A DNA stretch of 63,595 bases, counting the filler, from Reticulomyxa filosa (taxonomy: Eukaryota; Protista; Foraminifera): assembly GCA_000512085.1 (NCBI GenBank). It is 14 parts of 14 records of this genome, joined end to end, with 100 filler letters (N's around TTAATTAATTAA, not from the genome) between each part and the next. Parts side by side here need not be neighbours in the genome. Positions count along the whole stretch, not along the records: positions 45,727 to 54,393 come from ASPP01002767.1; 13 more parts are not named here. The stretch is one strand, 5' to 3'. Made by a program: the position numbers and the translations under genes. How positions within the stretch are numbered: the stretch's first letter is position 1; every line of letters starts with the position of its first letter. Positions 2,893-57,500 of this stretch are shown here, one piece after another. Under the pieces are notes generated by a model. It worked only from the letters and a program-made list of their open reading frames with translations. It did no database searches and was not told the DNA's origin.

Positions 2893-5800
2893 CTAGCACT
2901 TAACCATCGAAGAAAGAGAATTTGGAATATTAGTTTGGATCATTTGCAAAAGATTTTCCCAGGTCTCTTTGTACTTTTTGTTGTTGTTTTCCAATAGTTT
3001 ATCAACACGTGGATGTCTTTCGTGTTTGATTCTTTCTTTCATTGCCTTAATGTCTTTTCGTCGTTTCCACAAGACACGAAAATTATCCCAATAATCTTCG
3101 CCATAATCGGTTAATAATTCCTCTCCTGCATGGATTTTCTTGTTTTATTTTTGTGGACAAAAAGGTCAATATTTCAAAATAGAGTTTAATAAGACGACAG
3201 ATAGAAAAAACAAAAAAACTATGTAAATACTTAACTCTTGTGGAAACTGCAAAAATATGAGGCCAATAATTTACTAACACTTCATACATGGTCACATTTG
3301 CAGTTCGTTTTGACGCTGGCAAAGATGCTTTGCAATTCTCTGTTTTTTTCGTTCTATGTTTCATTCCTATTCTATTGCTATTGTTCGTTATTTTCAAATC
3401 TGTACTGCTTGTAGAGGACGAATGACAAGCTTCATTTCCTTTGGTGAAATCTTCACGATAGTCGTTCATATAAACACCCCTATTTTGTAACATTTAATTA
3501 TTGGCGACATTGTATAATGAATGTTAAAAAAAAAAAATTATTAAAAAAACAAAAACAAATACAAATACAAAACTCATTGTGATAATCGTGCGGATCAATC
3601 ACCATTTGATCATTTGGTGTTGGACCCCATGAAAATGTTTCATTTTTTTCTTGATGCTGACGCGTTTGTCCATTTAAATTGAACAAAGTAGTCTGATCCA
3701 ATTCATGCTCAATGTTATGCAATAATTGCTCTGCTTCACGCACTTGATTGACCACACCAGTGTATTCAAATAAAACCGTATGTTTTGGTATATCTTGAAC
3801 TGCAAAAAGCCCATATACTTTATTTTGATGAATGGCACTTTCCATACATCTCATTGCAGGATTGTTTACATCAGTAATTTGACCTTTTTTTCACAAAAAT
3901 AAAAAATATAAAAATGTAAAATAAAATAAAATAAAATAAATTAACATCAGCAATAATGTGTGATAAGATATTGTTGTACATTTATTTATTTACTTCCTCT
4001 TTCCTCTCCCCTTTCTCAAATTAATACCAACAACATAAGACCATGACGCAGTGTCACAAAGAGTGGACCATTCCTGCCAGTTTCTCTCCAAAAGCTCTAT
4101 GACCTGATTCGGTTTATGTAGACCTTGGACATCCCATTCCTCGCTAATGTTTTCTAAATGATATTCTGGGATTTGTCGAATTAGCATATCTTGTAACATT
4201 TGAAGACAAGCCTGTTCCCTCTTCTGTTTAATAGGCTTTTTATTATTTTTATTGTTAATTATTATTATCATTATTATTATTATTATTCAAAAACTACATA
4301 TTGATATGATATGCATTCAATCAATTTTTACAAAAAATTAATACAAAAAAAAAAAAAAAAAAAAGAAAGATAGATATTAACTCCAGATTTAACACTATGC
4401 ACTTGCTGTTGCGTGATAAATTTAGCATTAACAATTTTCGTAAGCGGTACTGGAACAAAATAATCAAATTTTTGCTTCATTCTTTCGGATATTGGTAAAT
4501 AGTTAAGATTCCGATATAAACTTGCTTTTGATCTCGTTGCTTTTGGTTTTGGTTTTGGTTTTGACTTTGGACTTGATTTTGGCTTTGGTTTTGGCTTTGG
4601 TCCTGGTTTTGATTTTGGCTTGGATTTGTCATCATTCTTTTACTTTTTTTGATATCTGAAAAATAAAAGAACAATGGGGTTTTAGAAGAGCCTTGCAATT
4701 TTTCAATAATCGCTTTTGCCTTTGAAGGTGGCAAAGTGTCAGGATGTTCAAATACCCATGTTTTCCAATATGCAATAATAGCATCATAAAAACCAGGATC
4801 TGCATGCCTCCAATTATTAGCAGTATGTGGATAATTTCGCCACTTGATTAAGTATTGATCAGATTCCTTATCATAATCCATAATTTCTTCAACTTCAAAG
4901 AATGCATCATCGAATGATTGCAAAATTGCCTGGCGTCGTTTCATCAAAATCGGCATATCATTATGACTGTACTCCACACAAATGGGACAAAACCAAGCCA
5001 AGTGATAATCATCCAAAGCAATTTTTTCCGAAGGATCAAATAAAGTGGATGGAACAGTTGCCAACAAATTAGGATGACAAGGACAATTCATATGAGTTAT
5101 TTTCTGACAATCACACGCCAACAAAAAATGTTGTGTAATATCCTCTAATCCACACATTGAACATATAAATTCTTCCAAAGGTGCACTTTCCATTGCATTT
5201 ATTAACACTTTGTCATTGGATACAGTTTGGCTTTGATAAAGAAGTTGACGATCTATTTTTTTTTCATACAAATAATACAACACTCAATTGTGCTTCGTTG
5301 TGTTGTATTCACAATACAATACTTTCTTACATTGATATCTTTTCCTAAGATAATGTTTAAGCAAGTCATTCTTGTTATCATAGCCTGACAAAATTGCAAC
5401 GAATAAACAATATCCTTCTTCACTTATATATTCTTCACCTTCAAATGTTACTACATATTTGTATATGCTATTTTGACAATCAACATGATCAAATTCAACA
5501 GTTTATTTTTATGCTGTTTTTTTTTTTTTCATTGCAAACTAAACAAATAAATTTGAATTTATAAAATATTGTTTGTTTGTTTGTTTGTTTGTTTTTTTTT
5601 TTTTTGCAAAACGAATGAGTCAATCCTTTATGTTTAATAAAATTTTTTTGTAAATCTGATATGAACACGTCCTTATAATTACGAAGTGTTCTTTTATGGA
5701 AGCGATTACCAAAAGCGTAAAACAAATCATTGACATTGATCCATACATGAAACAAACTTAAATCTTCAGGTACCTTGTCCGTATGCAAATTTTCCGTTTC

Positions 5801-23534: not shown

Positions 23535-23755
23535 TCTGAAATTTCGGTGAAAAAATGTTGTTGTGTGACAAAGTTAAACCGCAATCAATCTTTTTTCAAA
23601 TAAAATTATTATTATATAAAAGATTTAATTGATGCAATAAGATATACTTTTTAAAAATCTGTTCGCTGTAATAGAAGGCAATATTCATCGAACAGAACCT
23701 TTTTAGTAAACTTGGTAACAATCTGTAAAAAAAAAAAAAAAAGCAAAATCCCAAC

Positions 23756-24646
23756 ATGAAGTATTTTTGGTGCGCTTTATTGGCAAGCTTAGCAAGTGCT
23801 CGCTTGAAAGCCAATAACATTGTGGAAGTTTCGGTTTTAATAAACGGAAACCAAAATACGTATCAAGTAGTTGAAGGGATAGCTCCAAACGCTGATGTGA
23901 CAGCATCGTATATGGATGGGATGTCAAGTGTCGGTTGGGGTTTATTGAATGTAACAATAACGAACAAGCAAGGGACGAGTATTTCCGATCCGCAACGAAT
24001 GTACGCTGCAGGGTTAGCAGAAGGATATTTGACAAGTGTGCGAATCTACGAAATATACATGAACACATACAACGTTAGCGGATTGTGGGATTTCACCAAC
24101 GGTCCTTCGGCGACTTTGAGAGAATTTTTGAATACTCAGCAACAGTACATGGACAGCCAAATTGAAGCGCACAGTAGCAATGACCAATTTTGGTGGTATG
24201 CAAAGTTGTTACAAGAGCAATTTAACGGCTTGTGGTATGGATATAACTTGTCGATAACGGAAGGATATGTCAAACAACAAAACGGGTCAATGGTACCAAT
24301 TTTCAATGATTCGTGGCCCTTGCAATTCCTGAACCTGGTAGGAGATCTGTTGGACCTGATGAGCGCTCTCAACCAAACGCTGCGAGTGGATTACAACGAC
24401 TACTTGGATAGACCCAACGAATATTGGGAAATTATGCAAAGACGAGGTCGTTGTTCCGCCTTAATCAAAGTTATGTCATATAATTTCTATTCATAGTTGT
24501 ACGTGCATATGCATATATAATATATACGTATATGTATACGTATATATTATATTTATATATGCCATATATGCAGTTTGAAGAATTAATTGTTTGCATCAAT
24601 TATAGATGACACCATTGCTGGATGATATGTTCATTGGTCATTCAAG
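23756..24646 (+). CDS. Phospholipase B-like protein (Ntn-hydrolase, PLBD family), 5' part
   Basis: Signal peptide, GWGLLNV, YAAGLAEGYLT, QFNGLWYGY, NLVGDLLDL, the autocleavage site RCSALIK, and the next exon ..DDMFIGHS (24606-24646). Confidence 0.92.
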
Positions 24647-42146: not shown

Positions 42147-42397
42147 ATTTAATTTATTATATTATATTTTAAAAGCATGTCTTCTCTAATGAGTAGCGTA
42201 TTCTAACAATCATTGAGATTGAAAGTATTATGAAGAATATCTTACTTTCAATTGCTTTACTTGTATACCCAATTTAGTTTACCAAATTGAAAATGCCAAC
42301 TGTTTCTTTTTAATAAGGAACAAGCGAACAATAATCATTTGTGCTTCTTTTCAGCTCAACCTGTAGTTTTAAAGGGGCATGTTGCAAAAAAACATTT

Positions 42398-43459
42398 ATG
42401 AACATGCAAAGATTACTGAATATTTCAAGAAATTTACAAAAGACACAACATCAATGTCTCTTTCTTAGCAGATATGTATTAAGTACAAAAAATCCAGGTG
42501 GGCCTTCGCAACAGGATTTTGACTTTGAAGGGCAATCAGAATTGTATCGAATGTACCGACCTCGATACCCGGTGACATTGTTACAACATTTAGCCTTTAC
42601 GTTAGAATCAAACGGTTTTCCTTCAGAAAAACGAGACCTGGCTGTAGACATAGCGTGTGGCTCAGGTCAGGTTACATGTTCGTTGGCGCGGTCATGGAAA
42701 GATGCATACACAAGCAAAGTGACCAAGGAGCAATATGGATTGAATTTTAAAAAAGTGATTGGAATTGATGAATCCACCAAGCAATTGGAAGAAGCAACGC
42801 AAATGGACAATATTGAATACCGTTGTGAAAACGCGTATAACATGCCATTTCAAGAAAATTCAGTTCAACTTGTCACGATTGCACAAGTTACGTAAAATGT
42901 ATAGATATACAACGCACAGTTATGCGTAGTGCACAAACATACAACAAAATAGGGACTGCATTGGTTTGATCACAATAAATTAATGCAACAAATCCATCGA
43001 ATTTTAGTAAAAAATGGTATTTGTGCAGTGTTGGGATACAGCACGCCGGTATTTTTGCGTTATGACAAGTATTTCCATCCCGCGTTTAAAACCTACTACG
43101 AAGAGACCCTAGGCAGTATACATCCTCCATCTGACAAACGTTGCTATTGGAACATTGACCGAAGGTTGTTGGATCATCAATATCAACAACTTTCTTTTGA
43201 TCCTCCTTTTGACAAAAAAAAAATGGATCGGGGCATGTTCTATGAACACGTTCATATGAATGAACATCAGTTGTTTGGCTACTTTTTAACGTGGAGTGGA
43301 TATCGACAATATATGAAGAAACACAATATCGCCATTGGTGATAAAGAAAAAGATCCCTTAAATTCTTTGCGATCCGCTTTTAAAAAAGAATTAGCTGCAA
43401 GAAGTGATACCACTATGCTTGTCACTATCCCTTTCTTTTTAATCACTTTTGTAAAATAA
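42398..43459 (+). CDS. Class I SAM-dependent methyltransferase (Methyltransf_11; Tmt1/Crg1-like), intron 42887-42952
   Basis: YRMYRPRYP, motif I AVDIACGSGQ, VIGIDESTKQL and SVQLVTIAQ|GLHWFD..IHRILVKNG. The basic, acid-free N-terminus resembles a mitochondrial presequence. Confidence 0.92.
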
Positions 43460-45726: not shown

Positions 45727-48700
45727 TTATTTTATGAACATACTCGAGCATGGAAACCTAATAATCAATCCGAAGAGGAATTAAAACAAGCAAGTGATGA
45801 AACATTGACAAAGATCAATGACATAATTTGTGAATGGATTGATGCAAAAGAAATCAAAAAAATTGCAAATCGATATAAACCACATTCAGAAATTCGAATA
45901 TTAAAACCTTCTCAATTGAAAGGAATAAATGAAGAAGAAATTAATTCCAAAAATGATGTCACATTAAAATTGATCAAATTTGTATATGATCAACTTTGTA
46001 AATTCAATCCAAAGGAGATTAAGGGCAAAGCTATTTATGTAATTTTATTTGAATATTTCAAGAAATACATTATGGGTGAAATAAATCCAGCAAGCTGTGC
46101 TGATATTGTATCAATATTAAAAGAGTCAAGAAGACAAGAATTGGAAGAAGATACAACAATGTCACAGGCTCTTGAAACATATATTCCATTGCAAGCAAAC
46201 AATTATTCGTACGTTGACAGTGATGATAACAAAAACAATGACGCATATGATTGTTATCAACACATCATTGATATATTGATAGAAAAAAAAGAAAAAGAAG
46301 AAAAAAAAGACGGGCAACTAAATCAATTAGTGTTACAAGGAAAATCAGGATCAGGAAAAAGTTTATTCTGTCGTCATTTAGAAGAAATGTTGTGGGAATC
46401 ATATGTTAATGATCTCACAAAATTCGTTCCGGTATATATCTCATTATCAAAATGTTATAATGAATTAAATGAAAAGCAAATCATCTCACAAGCTTTACAA
46501 ATGAAACAAATAAACAAAGGGATAATTGATGTTATTCGTGAAAATATTTCATTTGTATTTATTTTAGATGGATTTGATGAAATATTTGACAAATATGATA
46601 ACAATAAAAATAATAATAATGAAAGATATTTTTATGATCGATTCAACTTAAATGAATGGAATGCAAAAATAATAGTAACATGTAGAAGTCATGTATTAAA
46701 TGATGAAAATATTAAAAATGTTTTAATTGGATCAAAAAACATAACAACAACATCAACATCAATAATGCACTTATGGCCTTTTTCAAAGGAACAAATGCAT
46801 GGATATATTGACAAATTTGTAAGAATGAATAAAAAAAATAAAATGAATGATAATTTGGATTGGACAGTACAACAATATGAAGAAACGTTGAAAAATTATC
46901 CAAATTTAAATAAAATGATGGAAGAACCATTCTTACTTCGAATGACATTAACTGTATTACCATTACTAATGAAACAGGGTTCTATTGGAACTAAAATATC
47001 AAAATCACAAGTATACGAAGCATTCAATGAACAATGGATTGATATCCATGTTAAAAACATCTCAAATAAATTATCAGAATTAAGAATTCAAGCAAATCCC
47101 AAAAAAATTAAATTTGCATTTCAACAATATTGTCAAGACTTAGCGTTTGAAATGTTTGTTCAAAGAAATCAAGTTGCGACAGAAACTGACTATAAAGAAT
47201 ATGAAAATGATAATACTTGGGGAATACTAGATCCAACAATGGAAATGGAAATTAAACATATGGATGAAAAATCAGAACTAAAAATAGGCAATACAAGAAC
47301 ATCAATAGTAAAAATGCAAGATATTTGGAGACAATATTTTAATGGTGATAGTATTGCCAAATATGTATTAAGGAGAGTTGGTGACAATAAATATCAATTT
47401 TTACATAAATCGTGCCAAGAATATTATGCCGCACAAAAAATCATATTTGATATTATTTCATGGAAACCCAATATTGTCACTGTTGATAATCAACAATTTC
47501 AACAGCAATTTGAGCAACGTGTTCCAAATTTGTCTATCAATTGTAAATTATTAAATGAAGAATTAGGAATTATCCAATTTATTGCAGAGAGAATTCATGA
47601 CAATAATCCAATATTTGTAAATTTAAAATCGAGATTGTTTCGAATTATTGAATTATCAAAAGATAATGAAAATGTTAGTATTGCAGCAGCAAATGCAGCC
47701 ACTATACTCAATTCAGCTAATATAAATATGAATTACCAAAACTGGAACAATATAAAAATTCCTTATGCAATTTTAGACACGCATTCCTTGAGGGAACTAA
47801 TTTTACAAACGCAAATTTGGATAATGTGCGTTTTTACCAAGCCTGCTTAACCAAGGTTAATTTCACAAATGCATCAATGAATGACATTTACTTTGGAGAA
47901 TATGCGTATTTGGAAGGGCATTCAAAGAGAATAAGTGGCATTCAATTTTCGCCAGATGGAACAAAAATAGTATCTTATTCACATGATCATACTATTCGAA
48001 TATGGGATACATTATCACAAAAACAACTTCATGTATTGAAAGGACATTCAGATGCAATAATAACAGTACGATTTTTACATGATAGTTCCAAAATTATGTC
48101 ATGTTCATGGGATAAAACTATTCGTACGTGGGATGTATTATCAGGCCAGCAATTAAACTATTGAAAGGAAATGTATCAGGTATGGTTTCAGCAGTATTTT
48201 CACCAGATGACTCCAAAATTGCTGTATATTCAAAAAAAACTGCCCAAGTGTTGGATACATCATCTGGAGAACAACTTCAATTATTAGAAGGACATTCTGA
48301 TACTATTTTTTCAGTGCAATTTTCATCAGATTCTTCCAAAATTGTATCAAGTTCAGCAGACAAAAGTATACGAATATGGGATATACTTTCTGGGAAACAG
48401 CTTCTATTATTAGAAGGACATTTAGATTATGTAAATAAAGTACAATTTATATCCAATGGATCAAAAGTTATATCATGTTCAAGAGACAAAACTATTCGAA
48501 TATGGGATATATTATCGGGTCAGCAAATTCAAATATTGGAAGGACATAAAGGCCCTGTATCTGGAATTCAATTATCACCAGATGGTTCAAAGATATTATC
48601 ATATTCAGGAGATTGCACTCTTCGATTATGGGATCAATTTTCTGGAAAACAAATTCACGTATTTGAAGGACATTCACGTTGGATAGAAAAAGCACGGTTT

Positions 48701-50080
48701 TCATCAGATGGTTCCAGAATTGTATCTAGTTCAAATGATAATACAACTCGATTATGGGATGTTTCATCAGGAAAGCAAATACAATTATTAGAAGAAGAGT
48801 CATCTGGTGCAGAATTTTTTCCAAAGGAGTCTAAAATTTTGTCATATTCATTAAATGGAACTATTCGAATATGGGATGTAGCAGTAGAAAGAAAAATTTA
48901 TCTAATAGAAGGATATTTAGATGCAATAACAGGATTACAATTTTCTCCTGATAATTCTAAAATTGTGTCATGTTCAAAGGATAAAACAATTCGATTGTGG
49001 GATGTACAATCAAGAAGACAGATTCAAGTTTTTGAAGGTCATTCAGATCATGTATTTGAAGTACTCTTTTCATCAGACGGCTCCAAAATTGTATCATATT
49101 CAAATGATAACACAATCCGAATATGGGATGTATCATCAGGAAAGCAGCTTCAGTTATTGGAGGGACACTCAGATTTTGTATGGAAAGTGCAATTTTCACC
49201 AGATAGTTCCAAACTTGTGTCATGTTCATCAGATAAAACCATTCGAATATGGGATATATCCTCAGGAAGACAAATCCAATTATTAATCGGACATTCTTCG
49301 ACTGTAACTGGAGTACAATTTTCACCGGATGGATCCAAAATTGTGTCTCGCTCTTGGGATAAAACAGTTCGATTGTGGGATGTGTTATCTGGAAAACAGC
49401 TTCAAGTATTCGAAGGACACTCAAAAGATGTAATGGGAGTAGAGTTTTCACCAGATGGATCTAAAATTGTATCATGCTCATGGGATAAAACAGTTCGAGT
49501 GTGGGATATATTATCTGGAAATCAACATTTACTATTAGAAGGACATAAAGAGGAAGTAAAAGATGTACAATTTTCTCCAGATGGTTCTAAAATCATATCA
49601 TGTTCAGGTGACAAAACAATTCGATTGTGGAATTTATTAAATGGAAAGCAGATATATATGTTTGAAGGACATGCTGACGAGGTAGTGAAAGCACAATTTT
49701 CATCAGATGGCTCTAAAATTTTCTCATATTCAAGAGATAATACTATTCGAATATGGAATGCGTCTTCAGGAAGACAAATTCAATTATTGGAAGGTCACAC
49801 CGAGTACATTGATGGCATTCGCTTATCATCTGATGGCTTAAAATTAGCGTCATATTCACGGGATAAAACAATTAGATTATGGGGTTGTGATAATTGTAAA
49901 ATTATGGATGTAACAGAAACAAGTTTGGTAAAATGTGTTTGGAGAGTGGGTATTCAAAGCAGTTTATTAATAAAAGACAGTATTTGGAAGGACACAAGAG
50001 GCTTGAAAGATGAACAAAAATTATTTGTGAAACAACGTGGTGGACTATTTCCATCTTTTTTTAGCTTTTTACATGTGTGA
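45727..50080 (+). CDS. STAND NTPase: NACHT + pentapeptide repeats + about 16 WD40 repeats; two single-base frameshifts (~47779, ~48155); 5' end off-contig
   Basis: Walker A LQGKSGSGKS, Walker B FILDGFDEI, sensor IIVTCRS, PFLL, winged-helix FLHKSCQEYYAA and AAANAATILN. Pentapeptides (AILD-HAFLE-GTNFT-NANLD..ACLTK-VNFTN-ASMND) precede 126-nt GH...FSPDGSKIVS.S.DKTIRIWD units. Confidence 0.92.
47910..49890 (+). repeat. Tandem 126-bp WD40-coding repeat array (about 16 units)
   Basis: Recurrent GAAGGACATTC..TTTTCACCAGATGG..AAAATTGT..ATTCGAATATGGGAT units. Confidence 0.9.
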
Positions 50081-50863
50081 ATAAAATTCATTTTTAGTAT
50101 TCTTGTTAAATACATCTACTCTCATGAGAAAGATAAAATCTTTTCAGATTTGGAAATTTTTTTGACAAAATATTAATAAAATATTTTCAAATAAAACATA
50201 CATATACCACATCGAAAGGAATTAATTTGGGAATTCAAAGAGTGTTTTTAAAAAATTAAAAATGCCATTAAGAAATTCATCATTCGATGTATTGATTTCA
50301 TTCCAATTACATTATTTGTTAATACTTGAGTCCAATATTTAATAATTATTTTAACTTTTTCTTCTTCTGATAAATTTATCTTAAATCACACACAATTAAA
50401 TCTTAAAATTAGTTTTTTGGAGGATATGTTGAAATGAAACCTACCACGCGTTGTGCTGAAGATGCTTTTCTATTTATATTGCCTATTTTTCAACTTCTGT
50501 TGTTCTCTTTGGATTTCTCTTTGATGATAATGATGTAAGACCAAAAACTTGAACTTTTTAGTCCACAAGGACTATTAAATAACTTTGATTTTTTAATAAA
50601 AGAAAAAAAAATTTGTGCTTGAATCCATTTCCATATTTCAAAAACAAAAACTTTTGAATGAAACGAAACATAATCCATAATAATTAGATATCAATTACAA
50701 TTATTTTGTATCATTAAAAGAATACATTGCAAAAAAAAATAAATCCTGTAACATTCTGCATCAAGCTTTGTTTGAATAATTTCTTATTTTTTTCAAAAGG
50801 TCTTGTCACGTCCCCTCTTTAAAAAAAGTTAAAAACTATTTAAAAAAATCCAGTGACATTAAC

Positions 50864-53030
50864 ATGGCTAATCGAAATACAAGACAAAAACCTCCTAAAG
50901 AACAAACTAAACAAGATCAACATCTTATTACTTCATCTCCCTTTCAATCTTTGAAGGATTTGCCCATTCCACTTGATCAATCTCAGTGTGTGTCGCACAA
51001 ACACGAAATCCTCATTTGCGGGGGCTATAGTCAAAGTGATTGTTATTCTTATCATACACTCAAAGATGAATACAAATTTATCTGTAAGTATCCAAGTGAT
51101 GTTAGCTTAAATGGACATTGTGTGGTGAAATTGGCAGATGATGACAATGTAATCACTTTGTTGTCTTTTGGTGGATATCCATTTTCAAACAAACATACAC
51201 TATTAATGAAATATGTAAGTGTTTGGGGTAATGAAAATAATAATAATGAAATAAATAAATCAAACAAGTACAATCAATGGATTTCTGTCATAGACGATCA
51301 CGACCATCCACTTATCATTGGAAGATATCATGATCCTTATCAAGGAGTGCGTGCAGTGATTGGGGGAAGCAAAAATCATTTGTTATTTATAACTTATTTT
51401 AAAAAGGGTATTAGTGTGTATGATTTAAGTACATATCAATTTATTAAACATGAAACTTTACCGACCGATAATTTAATTTATTATCACTGCTTTGTATCAA
51501 AGTCAGGAAATGGACAAAAAAATAAAAAAATAAATGAAATGTTATTGTTTTGTCAAAAGACAGGATTATCAATTGAATACGATGAAGATAACAACACTTT
51601 TCAGTTTCATAAGCTACCTGTTTGCGATGATATTGCATTATTCTTTAAATATGCATATGTGTGTATCAATGAGCAATCTTGTTCTTTGGTGGAGATGGTT
51701 GGAAAGGTGGTAAGTGCATTGTCTCAAAATTAGTGCATAAATATTCAATTCAAGAAAGCAAATGGACGACATTTGAAAACACTTTACCCAGTTCATTGTG
51801 TCATTGTGTTGCAATATTGAGTGAAGACAACACGCATATACACATTATTGGGGGAAAATGATAAAGATACCACAGTAGTACACATGAAGGCAAAATTACG
51901 TGTATGGGATGTTTCACAGTTGGTAATTATTTATTTTTTTTGATCAAACAGAAAATAAATTATACTATAAATAATGAACAGTCAAAAAATGAAATAAGAT
52001 CTATTGTTCAATATTGGATTCGAACTTTAAATATAAAATTAGGACGGATTAATAAGTTTAACAACATTGTCATCAACTATGTTAAGCAGTTTCTTTTGTA
52101 TACAAATGATTGTAATTATATAATTTGCATTTTCAAATAGGTAAAAGGTTATGAACTATTAAAGATTTTGCAAGGACATGACAAATCAGTGAGGATGTAA
52201 GATTTTCTGCAGATGGTCGCAAAATTGTTTCAGCATCATATGATCAGACTGTTCGAATATGGGATGTTTCATCGGGAAAACAACTTCAAATTTTTAGAGG
52301 GCATACAGATTCTGTCTTTACTGCGAGATTTTCACCAAATGGACATGTTGTTGTTTCGTGTTCAGGTGATGGAACAATTCGATTTTGGGATATTAATACA
52401 GGAACTGAAGTAATGAAATTAGAAAAAAATTTTGATAAGGTATTGGATGTAGACATTTCTCCAGATGGAAGATATATTGTGTCAGGTTTTAGAGATAACA
52501 TAATAAGATTATGGGATTTGCATTCTGGAATAGAAATAGGTCAATTATTAGGACATTCAAAAGGTGTATTGAATACACAATTTTCACCAAATGGTAAAAT
52601 GATTGTATCGTCATCATATGATAAAACAGTTAATCTGTGGAGCGTAGAATCAGGTGAAATATTGAAACAATTTAAAGAACATTCTGATGGTGTAATGCGT
52701 GCAAGATTTTCTCCAGATGGCAAATGTATTGTATCTTGTTCATCAGATAATACAATTCGAATATGGAATATTGAAACAGGAAAAGAATTGAACATATTGA
52801 AAGAGCATATAAATTGTGTGAATGATGTAAATTATTTTCCAGATGGTCAAACGATTGTATCGTGCTCAAATGATAATACGATTCAATTGTGGAATGTAGA
52901 ATCAGGAAATAGAATACAAATATTGAAAGGACATTCTCGTTCTGTGAAATGTGTGAATATTTCTCAAAATGGGAATATAATTGCATCGGGCTCTAATGAT
53001 TGTAAAATTCGAATTTGGGGATTATCATGA
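50864..53030 (+). pseudogene. Kelch-like propeller + linker exon + 7 WD40 repeats; about 3 frameshifts (pseudogene or sequencing errors)
   Basis: Kelch-like GG blades (LICGG, LSFGG, AVIGG, LFFGG, HIIGG), introns 51923-51981 and 52081-52140, then 7 WD40 units to 53030. The frame breaks near 51672, 51858 and 52196. Confidence 0.8.
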
Positions 53031-53689
53031 TTCATACAAACAATAAAATTTTTTTTAAGCAATCCAAAAAATCAAAATTGGAGTGAAGGAATTCACTAAA
53101 TAAAAAATTGTATTCTCGATTCTCTTTCGTAATACAACTTTTTTTTAAATATTATTTTAAAGATTTATAATAACAAGGAACAAACACTCAAAGTTTACAA
53201 GGGCATGTTCGGTACTTTTTATTTGATATCCTTCAATATCAAACTTGTTTTTAACTATCTTTGAAACTATTTTTGGAATCGTGTCAAAACTTTTTTTGAA
53301 AAATAAAAAATAATGAACAAAAATTAAATAATAAGTATAGTAATGTTAATTTATTTCAATTAAGTTCTTAAACTTACTGCAATTTTGAAGAGTGAAAAAA
53401 CATAGATAAAAAAAGCAGTGACTATTATGGGATACTTCAAATTACAATAAATAATGTGTATGCGTGTCGAAAAAATCCACTCCATTTAATAAAAAGTTAA
53501 GTAGTGTAAAATTGAGTATAGTCCTCCATCCAACCAAATTTAAGACTTGCTTTTTTAGTCAATAACAATACATTATTATTTAAAAGAAATTACAAATTAA
53601 ATATCAATCATTTCTATTATCAAAAATTACGTGATGAAAATAAAAAAATTAATTTTCTTTTTATTTACTTACAAATTTTTACAATGCGT

Positions 53690-54393
53690 TCATCCCCAAA
53701 CACAAATCCAACGTTTGTTTGAACCATAACATAAATTAACACAAATATCATCATTTACTTTTTTTTCGTTGTTGTTTGAATTCTTTTTCAATTCAATAAA
53801 TTTAAGACATGCTATTTCTTCATATACTTTGATCACATATAATTCACTCTTATTTGATCGAATATCCCAAAAACGAATTGTATTATCCAATGATCCAGAA
53901 CATATCACATTCGAATTACCACCAACTCCATCAGTATTCTTTATTACAAATGGTGAATATTCAACAGCCCAAACCCAATTTGTATGCCCATTGAACACTT
54001 GGATTTGTTCATCAGATCGTATATCCCATAAGCGAACACTTTTATCATCTGATCCAGATAATATTGTATTCCTTAACTCACTTGATCCATATTTTACACT
54101 CCTAACCCAACTATCATGTCCTTTGAATATACCCAATTGTTCAGTTGTTTCAATATCCCATATTCGAATGGTTTTATCAAATGATCCAGAACAGATTGTA
54201 TATCCGTTACCGCCAAGTAAACCAATATTGTTACTTTTATTATCATTCCTGTTGTTGCCTTGCAATGGTGAAATGTCAACACACCAAACAGTACTTGTAT
54301 GCCCATTGAAAACGTGCAATAAACTGGATTTTTCAACATCCCACAAACAAATAGTTTTGTCATCAGATCCAGAACACAAATATCTACCACCAT
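53690..54393 (-). CDS. WD40-repeat protein, 3' fragment (Reticulomyxa-type family)
   Basis: GGRYLCSGSDDKTICLWD..GHTSTVWCVDISPLQ..GGNGYTICSGSFDKTIRIWDIET..ICSGSLDNTIRFWDIRSNK. Confidence 0.9.
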
Positions 54394-54493: not shown

Positions 54494-54532
54494 AATAATA
54501 ATAATAATAATAATAATAAACGTGTAAAGAAC

Positions 54533-57500
54533 GTGGACGAACATGCATTGAAAAAAGCATCAATTGAACCAGGATGGTACAACCCCGCAGAACCCAAGGA
54601 TTATAAGAACAAGAACAAATTGCGCGACTACCAGACCATTGGTGTGAATTGGATGATCCTAAAGTTTCTGCGCGGTGAAAATTTTATTTTGGCAGATGAA
54701 ATGGGACTGGGCAAAACAGTCCAAAGCGTATGCTTTTTGCTGCACTTGCAGCAGGAGTGCAACATCCACGGACCTTATCTGATCGTGGCGCCCTTGTCCA
54801 CGATCCCCAACTGGAAGCGAGAAATGGAGGAGTGGAGTGACTTCAACGTGGTGGTGTATCACGACAGCGAAAAGTCGCAAGAGTCGCGAGCCATTATCCG
54901 TGAGCACGAGTGGTACAATCATTCCACGGGACAAATCAAGTTCAATGTACTGCTTACGACATACGAAATTGTGTTATCCGACGCCGAGTATCTGGCTGAA
55001 ATCCCTTGGTTCTTGGCCGTGATCGACGAAGGACATCGTCTCAAGTCCACCCAAACCAAACTGGCCGATGCCTTCAAATACATTAAGCCCGATCGTCGAG
55101 TGCTGTTGACTGGCACACCAATCCAAAATAGCGTGCAGGAACTGTTCAACTTGCTATCGTTCCTGGAACCTTCCAAGTTTTTATCCTACGACGCATTTTC
55201 CAAGAAGATTGGGACGAACGTGGACGACAGTGAAAAGTTGATGAAGCTGCGCGAGGAAATCCAGCCGTTTGTGTTGCGACGATTGAAAGAGACGGTGGAA
55301 AAGTCGATTCCAAAAAAAGAGGAAACGATCATTGACATTGAATTGACGACCACACAAAAGACATATTATCGCGCCATCTTTGAAAAAAACCGCGAGTTTT
55401 TGGAGGAAGGAATAACGTCCAAGACCAGTCTACCCAATTTGCTAAACTTGGAAGTGCAGTTGCGCAATCATCCGTTGCTGATCAATGGCGCCATGGAACA
55501 CGAACTGCCCGAACACTTGTCCGAACAAGTGATAATGGAAAAGACAATCAAAGCGAGTGGGAAATTGGTGCTGCTAGACAAACTGTTGCCGAAACTGAAG
55601 GAAGAGGGACACAAAGTTTTGATCTTTAGTCAAATGCGACGCATGCTCGAAATCGTAAGCGACTACATGAAGTACAAACAGTATACGTTTGAACGCTTCG
55701 ATGGCATGACCAAGTCATTGGATCGTCAGGCTGCCATTGATCGCTTTTGCGCGAAAAACTCGAATGTGTTTGCTTTTCTGCTGACGACGCGTGCCGGTGG
55801 ACAAGGCCTCAATCTCGTGGCTGCTGACACGGTCATCATCTTTGATAGCGATTGGAACCCGCAACAAGACTTGCAAGCTCAAGCTCGTTGTCATCGCATT
55901 GGACAAATGAAGGAAGTCAAAGTGTTTCGCTTTGTCACAAAAAACACGTATGAGGCCGACATGTTCGATCGTGCTTCGCGGAAGCTGGGACTCGGACATG
56001 CCATTTTGAAGTCCGTTGAACATGGCACGGGCACCAAAGATTTGAAGGATTTGAAAGTATTGGACAACATGCTACGTCACGGAGCTTATGCGTTGCTGGA
56101 AGAGGACGATACTGCCGCCAAAAAATTTGAAGAATCCAACATTGACGAAATCCTGAAACACTCGTCGCGAAAGTTGGAAATGAAATCGTCGATCAAAAAA
56201 AAAAGATTGAGCGAAAACGGAGATGAAGAAGAGGATGAAGAAGAAGAGGAGGAAGAGGATGATGATCACGAAGATGGACAGCCAAATGGACATTCGTCCC
56301 AAATCGGTGTTGGCTTGGGAATACACGCGTTCACACGAAGCTCCTTTACTGCTGATGCAAATGATTCTTCTTTGAATATGAATGATACTGACTTTTGGTA
56401 AAAAAGTTTTTTTTTTTTTTTTTAAAAAAAAATAAATAAATAAACAAATATAATACAATATAATATATATTATATTGTGATGATCTAACAATGAACATGC
56501 TTAATTGGTTGATGTTACTACAAAAGATATTCAAAATTCGACGGAATAAAAATATGGAGGTAGACGGAGATGATGACGATGCACTGCTGGACGACACGGC
56601 GAAATCACGGCGATTGCTGGACGATATTAGCAGCGACTTCCCTTTCGACAAACCAAAGAAAGTGGAGGTGTGGTGGAACAAGTGCAAGAAGCACGTAGAA
56701 AAGATTGTGCAAAAGTACAAAGAAGGCGAGACGATTCACAACTTGGAAGTTCACAAACATTTAGTCAATGAAATTGTTAGCTTAGCTTCTCAAGATGTCT
56801 TCAATCCCAAATGTTTAAAGAAAGCCAAAGAGTGGCAAAAAGTGCTCAAAAAACGTTTACGCAAATCAATGAAGCCATCTTTGAATGAGGACAAATTAGA
56901 TTTATTTAATAACATTATCAAGCCCCCTGCAAAGAGTTTCGTGTATTTTTGTTATATATATGTATATGTGTATATGTATACATGTACTCTCATGTTTCAA
57001 TTGATATTTTTTACGTTTAAAAAAAAAAAAAAAAAAAGCGAGTAAACGTCGGAAAAAATCCAACAAAAAAAGAAAACTCGTCGAATGAAATGATGGATGA
57101 AACCCCAAAAGCGACAACGAACAAGAATGAAAATGACCCATTTGCTCCGACAGACTGGCCACTGTGGCGAGGTGATTGGTCGGACCAATGTTCCCGATGC
57201 AATCTCGGTGGAGAGCTGTGGCTGTGCGATGGACCTTGTGTCGGGTCTTACCATACCAAATGCATTGGCGAGCTCGCTCTCGATACCGAATCCGACCCTT
57301 GGTACTGCGATCAATGTCACTCACTATTGAAGCGCCGAAATACCATCACGAAAGCCACTCTGGGAAAATCCAAGCGCTTTATGCCTAAATCGCATTGTCT
57401 GGTCCACGTGTGGATCGACGAAGGCGACACCTGTCCTCCCACAAAAGTGGCTGTGCTAGAAGGTGGTCCATTGCACGCTACAAACCTCTTTCAACCTGAA

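Follow-up and report, generated by a model that had tools for sequence, protein, structure and literature searches.

The window analysed here is a stretch of 63,595 nucleotides from the foraminiferan Reticulomyxa filosa, in which contigs are strung together with N spacers. One of these contigs (45727-54393, 8,667 bases) opens at its first base, 45727, inside a gene on the plus strand (45727-50080) that encodes a NACHT module, pentapeptide repeats, and 16 WD40 units spread over three frames. Judged by its sequence and that of its paralogues, this gene, which we call the window gene, lacks its 5' end, has two frame breaks, and belongs to an expanded R. filosa family whose proteins combine an effector, a NACHT module, pentapeptide repeats, and a predicted double propeller. 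By analogy with known systems we propose, at a probability of about 0.55, that proteins of this family are intracellular non-self sensors that would switch on a predicted Tas1-like, nucleotide-consuming pyrophosphokinase.

A predicted Tas1-like enzyme in an expanded NACHT family

A search with the first frame of the window gene matched 70 proteins among 6,614 candidates, and 47 of these are named R. filosa proteins. One of them, P0001 (99% identical), is evidently the deposited model of the window locus and the remaining 46 long R. filosa matches are paralogues that are 50-80% identical to the window gene. The other 23 matches reach only 23-32% identity and include five from Mycoavidus and Glomeribacter. 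For the NACHT region, the closest named matches outside Reticulomyxa are Mycoavidus/Mortierellomycota-type proteins at 25-27% identity. Pfam identified the NACHT module (PF05729, 38.7 bits with a cut-off of 26.7, E 1.2e-9) and the pentapeptide repeats (PF00805, E 2.7e-10), the WD40 repeats were detected as well, and both Walker A (46339) and Walker B (46558) are intact. The NLR-like NACHT-pentapeptide-WD40 architecture and the receptor repertoire put forward in an initial annotation of this DNA are thus borne out by the Pfam matches, the Walker motifs, the 16 WD40 units, and the 47 long R. filosa proteins. Some paralogues are labelled 'NB-ARC', 'caspase p20', or 'G-protein beta' in the database, and we do not accept these names. 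Scans of metagenome contigs (alignment A1) and genome contigs (NACHT region) gave no confirmed relative. The closest non-Reticulomyxa NACHT is that of P0048 (32% over 83% of the query), a protein with a different N-terminus that begins with a signal-peptide-like stretch and with highly repetitive WD40 units (86% mean identity).

Compared with its closest long paralogues, the window gene is without ~370-420 N-terminal residues owing to the contig start. In the paralogues these residues begin with a short helical stretch, which leads into a Cys-rich beta domain and then into a domain that has RelA/SpoT motifs. The initial annotation missed this enzyme domain because it lies beyond the contig start. 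Of 34 N-terminal proteins that were aligned, 26 matched the Pfam RelA_SpoT family at E <=0.05 (best 3e-6). Tas1 was the sole match of the family profile among 177,635 PDB sequences (E 6e-4), and it was also the top Foldseek match (E 2e-6) of an AlphaFold model of the N-terminal region of paralogue P0071 with a predicted local distance difference test score (pLDDT) of 75; the next matches were further alarmone synthetases and CapRel. When a metagenomic homologue served as the query of an exhaustive search, there were 71 matches, including four proteins at E 2-6e-4 that aligned over the whole domain, three of which match RelA_SpoT themselves. Adding these four to the profile brought the Tas1 match to E 4e-15, a value that is not independent of the earlier one. 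The predicted module is also present outside the R. filosa genome in three metagenomic proteins (39-58%), and an atlas search with the enzyme domain gave leads only under 0.9.

The enzyme core is the most conserved region of the family (79%, versus 66% for NACHT and 61% for the Cys domain). Catalytic-type motifs, namely a basic ATP-binding helix, D-x-x-R, and E-x-Q, are present and near-invariant across ~40 loci; we take their catalytic roles to be those assigned in work on RelA/SpoT homologues (RSH). All 39 paralogues aligned at K265, R269, E272, K273, D287, and R290 have these residues; at the two other sites 42 could be aligned, of which 41 have E350 and all have Q352. The conserved Glu of the family aligns to E361 of the Tas1 chain, presumably the catalytic E382. 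When 163 R. filosa proteins were examined, 78 spanned the core and 62 of those 78 retain all four motif groups; in 37 of the 46 long paralogues the core motifs and both Walker motifs occur in one model. Among the effector matches listed, 48 of 48 long and 117 of 120 short ones are from R. filosa, and since many of the short matches are fragments an exact locus count is impossible. Because the window gene starts inside the last motif of this domain and its first 160 amino acids are 86-89% identical to paralogues with the whole domain directly upstream, it almost certainly once carried the Tas1-like domain.

The Cys-rich beta domain (residues 120-222 of P0002) has the pattern C-x4-C ... C-x2-C. 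In the atlas it resembles, at 0.92, eukaryotic clusters that are mostly from rotifers and, more weakly, a ubiquitin-associated cluster; P0219 contains the domain in tandem copies. P0192, an R. filosa 'vcbs repeat-containing protein', has the Cys-rich and Tas1-like module C-terminal of a repeat-rich N-terminal region and a hydrophobic, likely transmembrane segment. It is possible that P0192 is a surface receptor with the same output as the NLR family. In the homologue P0220 the enzyme module stands behind an extracellular contractile injection system (eCIS)-core domain. The divergent homologues P0193 and P0197 have degraded enzyme motifs and are possibly inactive or decoy members. A match to a coral complement receptor, P0199, was rejected as a repeat artefact.

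Variable sites and exchange of the sensor

The last 847 residues of the intact paralogue P0004, as modelled by AlphaFold (pLDDT 88, predicted template modelling score 0.70), contain helices, a pentapeptide strand pattern, two eight-unit runs parted by a conserved linker, and a tail with pentapeptide-like spacing. As read from the list of strands, the sensor is likely a double propeller of 8+8 units. Foldseek with this model gave the best E-value for the repetitive propeller 2YMU, and the best template modelling scores (TM-scores) among the matches listed were for Apaf-1/apoptosome (0.45-0.53, versus ~0.3 for most others).

The window gene contains 14 ungapped WD40 units of 126 nt and two degenerate units (unit 3 is one codon short and unit 8 is 9 nt short), in agreement with the approximately 16 units of the initial annotation. 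All 11 hexamers after GH and all 12 S-x-D residues quoted there are present in the translation. Mean identity among the 14 clean units is 67% for DNA and 54% for protein (protein range 38-74%). When numbered like the HET-E repeat in PMC12222747 (G at position 8 and H at position 9), these units vary most at positions 12, 14, and 30 with 10, 11, and 8 different residues, and position 13 is invariably V or I. The strong variation that had been described right after GH is thus seen at positions 12 and 14 and not across all six residues. Positions 12, 14, and 30 correspond to R1-2, R1, and D-1, the top-face binding positions of WD40 propellers (PMC3419727). They fit published hotspot rules, as would be expected if the variable sites lie on the propeller top face as in HNWD proteins, which had also been suggested; this assignment rests on sequence rules and not on model coordinates. 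Across 605 clean units from 47 proteins entropy is highest at positions 12, 30, and 14, where 493 distinct triplets occur. When units of the window gene were paired with colinear units of 15 paralogues (166 pairs), 50 of 498 residues match at these three positions versus 69% elsewhere. Taken alone, this hypervariable WD40 pattern is an ordinary, known design. The further expectation of highly conserved, HNWD-like repeats did not hold. Mean repeat identity is 54% in the window gene (maximum 74%) and 37-68% across the family, versus >80-85% within HNWD proteins (PMC12222747, PMC4986451).

We applied codon site models for the ratio of nonsynonymous to synonymous substitution rates (dN/dS, omega) to the 14 clean units of this one gene, with units 3 and 8 excluded, using a single tree, relative branch lengths fixed from M0, and naive empirical Bayes. 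M8 beat M8a under GY-F3x4 (nominal p 0.0008, omega 3.2) and under GY-F61, MG-F3x4, MG-F1x4, and FMutSel0 (nominal p 0.0001-0.002, omega 3.8-5.8). Sites 12 and 14 fell in the top omega class in all five of these models and site 30 in four, with overall omega among the repeats at 0.2-0.4 in five models. None of 61 recombining null simulations reached the observed statistic of 9.99 (null maximum 8.7). The per-codon comparison of repeats that the initial annotation had called for therefore gives omega above 1 at sites 12 and 14 in five of six models, and at site 30 in four, within the window gene.

Only 17 of the 605 units have a neighbour that is at least 85% identical. Several units hold position-specific features across paralogues. 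A distinct repeat type B, which was defined from the repeats after inspection of a first repeat tree, is common to 9 of 42 proteins (5 of the 47 were dropped because motifs were missing); the nearest neighbour of a unit lies within the same gene for ~75 of 605 units, mostly in type-B genes. In the non-repetitive helical/pentapeptide segment, for which 29 of the 42 proteins were used, the six alignable type-B proteins form a clade with support of 100/99. By contrast, the NACHT data rejected a grouping of all nine type-B proteins (approximately unbiased test, p-AU 2e-70, LG+G4), with six changes. The window gene is type A, but P0003 and P0007, which are closest to it in NACHT, have type-B repeats, and its identity to P0003 is 72-90%, then 68%, then ~50% past NACHT. 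These comparisons support the idea that sensors have moved between loci as whole cassettes; independent conversion could account for them instead and would likewise require between-locus exchange. A triplet test for mosaicism of the window gene versus P0004 and P0030 gave 114:113 in the C-terminal part, a result that saturation could also yield. Of the repeat shuffling between loci for which a test had been suggested, the exchange of whole cassettes is supported by the NACHT and helical/pentapeptide data, and the repeats are not homogenised as in HNWD proteins.

State of the window copy and its surroundings

Translation and alignment with paralogues located the two frame breaks of the window gene at ~47777 and 48153-48155, next to the 47779 and 48155 of the initial annotation. 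Each break resembles one missing base relative to paralogues, and a paralogous DNA contig has one base more at 47777. A 1,449-codon read-through of the gene contains zero in-frame stops. Among sequencing runs, no RNA run was listed with the gene. Three synthetic-metagenome runs were, two of them at a share of 0.14, and none of their contigs bridges either break with matching sequence. The R. filosa assembly was reportedly built on 454 reads. Sequencing error and recent decay are about equally good fits to indels without nonsense change, and the window copy itself may be dead. The deposited model P0001 spans both breaks with introns that remove conserved coding sequence. We rejected these two introns as normal gene structure, the removed sequence being coding and 76-87% conserved in type-A paralogues; splicing may still act as a rescue of this copy. 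The layout of the gene, which stops at 50078-50080, is given in Table 1.

Table 1. Predicted domains and motifs of the window gene, with the basis for each.
Feature	Position	Strand	Basis
Last motif H-x-x-Y-E-x-x-R (H off-contig) of predicted Tas1/Apk-like RelA/SpoT pyrophosphokinase domain	45727..45747	+	Paralogue alignment; motif aligned to Tas1 chain residues 403-410
Helical linker, effector to NACHT	45748..46191	+	Helical in AlphaFold model of paralogue P0071; 62% mean paralogue identity
NACHT module	46327..47424	+	Pfam PF05729, E 1.2e-9
Walker A	46339-46362	+	Within NACHT module
Walker B	46558-46581	+	Within NACHT module
Sensor-1-like motif	46669-46686	+	Within NACHT module; label presumed
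Winged-helix His motif	47392-47424	+	Within NACHT module; label presumed
Helical domain and pentapeptide repeats, with 1-base frame break at ~47777	47548..47894	+	Pfam PF00805, E 2.7e-10; paralogue alignment
Putative first propeller of WD40 units 1-8 (3 and 8 degenerate), with the second frame break at ~48154	47895..48889	+	Repeat alignment; AlphaFold model of P0004
Putative second propeller of WD40 units 9-16, after a position-conserved linker	48890..49897	+	Repeat alignment; P0004 model
C-terminal tail, pentapeptide-like strand spacing and final helix	49898..50080	+	Kept in paralogues; DSSP pattern of P0004 model

The C-terminal tail would pack onto the pentapeptide helix.

Downstream on the same contig is a gene (50864-53030, plus strand) with a kelch-like N-terminal region, two likely introns, and then seven WD40 repeats; it has three frame breaks (~51680, 51860, and 52197). 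A further WD40 gene, whose loops bear long inserts rich in Asn/Gly, is present as its 3' part (53690-54393, minus strand) and is cut by the contig edge. Ordinary genes on other contigs of the window encode a GNAT acetyltransferase (1419-2213), a chromodomain protein (4477-5283), a phospholipase B (23729-24496), an S-adenosylmethionine (SAM) methyltransferase (42335-43459), and an SNF2 helicase (54494-56401).

Known systems, proposed function, and alternatives

The family resembles several known systems. It shares with the Podospora HNWD/NWD proteins (HET-E, HET-D, and HET-R) a NACHT module, 42-aa WD40 units in the same register, a double propeller (predicted in R. filosa), diversified positions 12/14/30, and exchange between paralogues. 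It differs from them in that no HET domain was found, repeats are 54% identical, several units keep their positional identity across paralogues, exchange involves mainly whole sensor cassettes, and there are 16 units, likely 8+8 rather than 7+7. The search for a HET domain covered the Pfam families listed for residues 1-561 of P0002 and for 34 N-terminal proteins (25 of 27 families in the latter case), among which RelA_SpoT was found instead. RelA_SpoT-NACHT-WD40 proteins are listed in fungi, with Gaeumannomyces entries in Dyrka et al. 2014 (PMC4986451) and others in PMC12258605 and PMC9815663. In these, as in the R. filosa family, an RSH-synthetase-like effector comes first, then NACHT, then the WD40 sensor. 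The domain is rare there as the N-terminus, with 14 T-NACHT cases (82% of the class) among 4613 Sordariales NLRs (PMC12258605), whereas it is the standard N-terminus in the R. filosa family, which also has extra Cys-rich and pentapeptide domains. No fungal protein was among the 48 long and 120 short effector matches listed, from a word-based search of limited sensitivity. Ciach et al. (10.1101/2021.12.02.471044) describe NACHT-pentapeptide-WD40 NLRs of Mycoavidus and Mortierellomycota, which have the same body and the same three most variable sites, but whose N-termini showed no Tas1-like motifs and whose repeats resemble one another more closely (mostly 63-83%). It has been argued that bacteria repeatedly passed on NACHT modules (10.1101/2022.07.19.500537).

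The (p)ppApp synthetases Tas1/Apk1 and Apk2 (PDB 6OX6; PMC10083569, PMC8118318) share with the R. filosa domain the fold, the motif order, the catalytic Asp/Arg, Glu-x-Gln, and a C-terminal H-x-x-Y-E-x-x-R helix. They are delivered interbacterial or phage-borne toxins with immunity proteins, whereas in R. filosa the domain forms one protein with a eukaryotic NLR switch and shows H-H or H-Y where Tas1 has G-Y. Apaf-1, which gave the best TM-scores among the matches listed, is also a STAND NTPase with a two-propeller clamp, but combines NB-ARC and a CARD rather than NACHT and an enzyme. The Apaf-1 repeats are not known to be diversifying. We found no paper on this R. filosa family, including with searches for Reticulomyxa together with NACHT/WD40 and for NTPase/biological conflict, for which coverage of subscription papers and NLR-survey supplements is limited. 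What this analysis adds is that a large NLR-like family of a foraminiferan, with recombination among its members, has a Tas1-like effector as a fixed component.

We propose that a foreign or damage-linked protein would bind the cleft between the two propellers via the 12/14/30 residues, leading NACHT to exchange ADP for ATP and then to oligomerise. The N-terminal domain, freed or clustered in this way, would move pyrophosphate from ATP onto a 3'-OH acceptor. The acceptors would most likely be adenosine nucleotides, yielding (p)ppApp and an ATP drain, with tRNA ends or GTP/GDP as alternatives, and the affected part of the cytoplasmic network would arrest or die. We infer ligand binding, NACHT activation, and pyrophosphate transfer because of NLR biology and the activity of Tas1, which makes (p)ppApp and depletes ATP (PMC8118318, PMC10083569).

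Several observations weigh against this proposal. The window copy's own effector lies off-contig and is predicted from paralogues, and the gene has two frame breaks (~47777 and 48153-48155). RelA_SpoT scores of P0002 and P0071 are 18.6-20 bits, whereas the curated cut-off is 27. Where Tas1 binds its acceptor with G-Y, the family has H-H (37 of 41) or H-Y (4 of 41), and therefore the product may differ from that of Tas1. Positions 12/14/30 are also the most variable ones in 174 units of 18 Mycoavidus-like matches, and diverse hotspot sites are general in repetitive WD40 proteins (PMC5587647). A sixth codon model, with third-position frequencies, lent no support (p 0.21) and had a fit ~50 log units worse. 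Recombination inflates the M8/M8a test, with 9 of the 61 recombining nulls passing the nominal 5% level, and the nominal p-values are therefore too small.

The altered acceptor pocket also bears on a different reading of the enzyme, in which it would be a signalling output. It would then make a nucleotide messenger at a low level, such as (p)ppGpp or pApp, for another protein to sense during stress, during feeding, or in the control of symbionts. The occurrence of the Cys-domain and enzyme module on the predicted transmembrane protein P0192, suggesting a reusable signalling unit, is likewise in its favor. We nevertheless consider it doubtful, as the closest solved relative, Tas1, is a toxin, P0220 carries the module behind an eCIS-core domain, and a place N-terminal of NACHT is the usual position of an effector (PMC4986451).

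The likeness to HNWD proteins raises the possibility of allorecognition (fusion incompatibility) as with het-e/het-d, where the trigger would be conspecific non-self and unlike fused cytoplasm would be killed or sealed off. R. filosa is a multinucleate organism with fusing pseudopodia, which would suit such a role. So would the place of positions 12, 14, and 30 within the seven positions (10, 11, 12, 14, 30, 32, and 39) used to class HNWD repeats (PMC12222747). This role appears improbable to us given that no HET domain was found, that internal repeat conservation is not high (the 17 of 605 units noted above), and that dozens of diverged loci would suit broad surveillance better than a few balanced incompatibility loci. 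About as improbable is a non-immune or largely decaying expansion, with top-face variation reflecting relaxed constraint at exposed sites of duplicated scaffolding repeats and many copies, including the window gene, being pseudogenes: the frame breaks in the window gene (two) and its neighbor (three), the general variability of top-face sites in repetitive WD40 proteins (PMC5587647), and one codon model with omega not above 1, together with saturation at the 12/14/30 sites, fit this, but overall omega of 0.2-0.4 in five models, the 1,449-codon read-through without an in-frame stop, catalytic residues near-invariant across ~40 loci, and the failure of all 61 neutral-class simulations to reach the observed statistic argue against it.

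To our knowledge, almost nothing is known about innate immunity in Rhizaria. If the family consists of non-self sensors as we propose, Foraminifera might have many-locus NLR immunity in which the killing output is alarmone-type chemistry from bacterial warfare and specificity is renewed by top-face diversification and cassette swaps, a broader picture that we offer tentatively. In this picture each receptor, on meeting an invader, would release an enzyme that turns ATP into (p)ppApp and so closes down the infected sector of the syncytial network. In the R. filosa family a single receptor design exists in dozens of natural versions, and its enzyme is conserved and can be assayed. This makes testable both the product of RelA/SpoT-like domains on eukaryotic NLRs and the idea that (p)ppApp-type ATP depletion may be a eukaryotic defence output.

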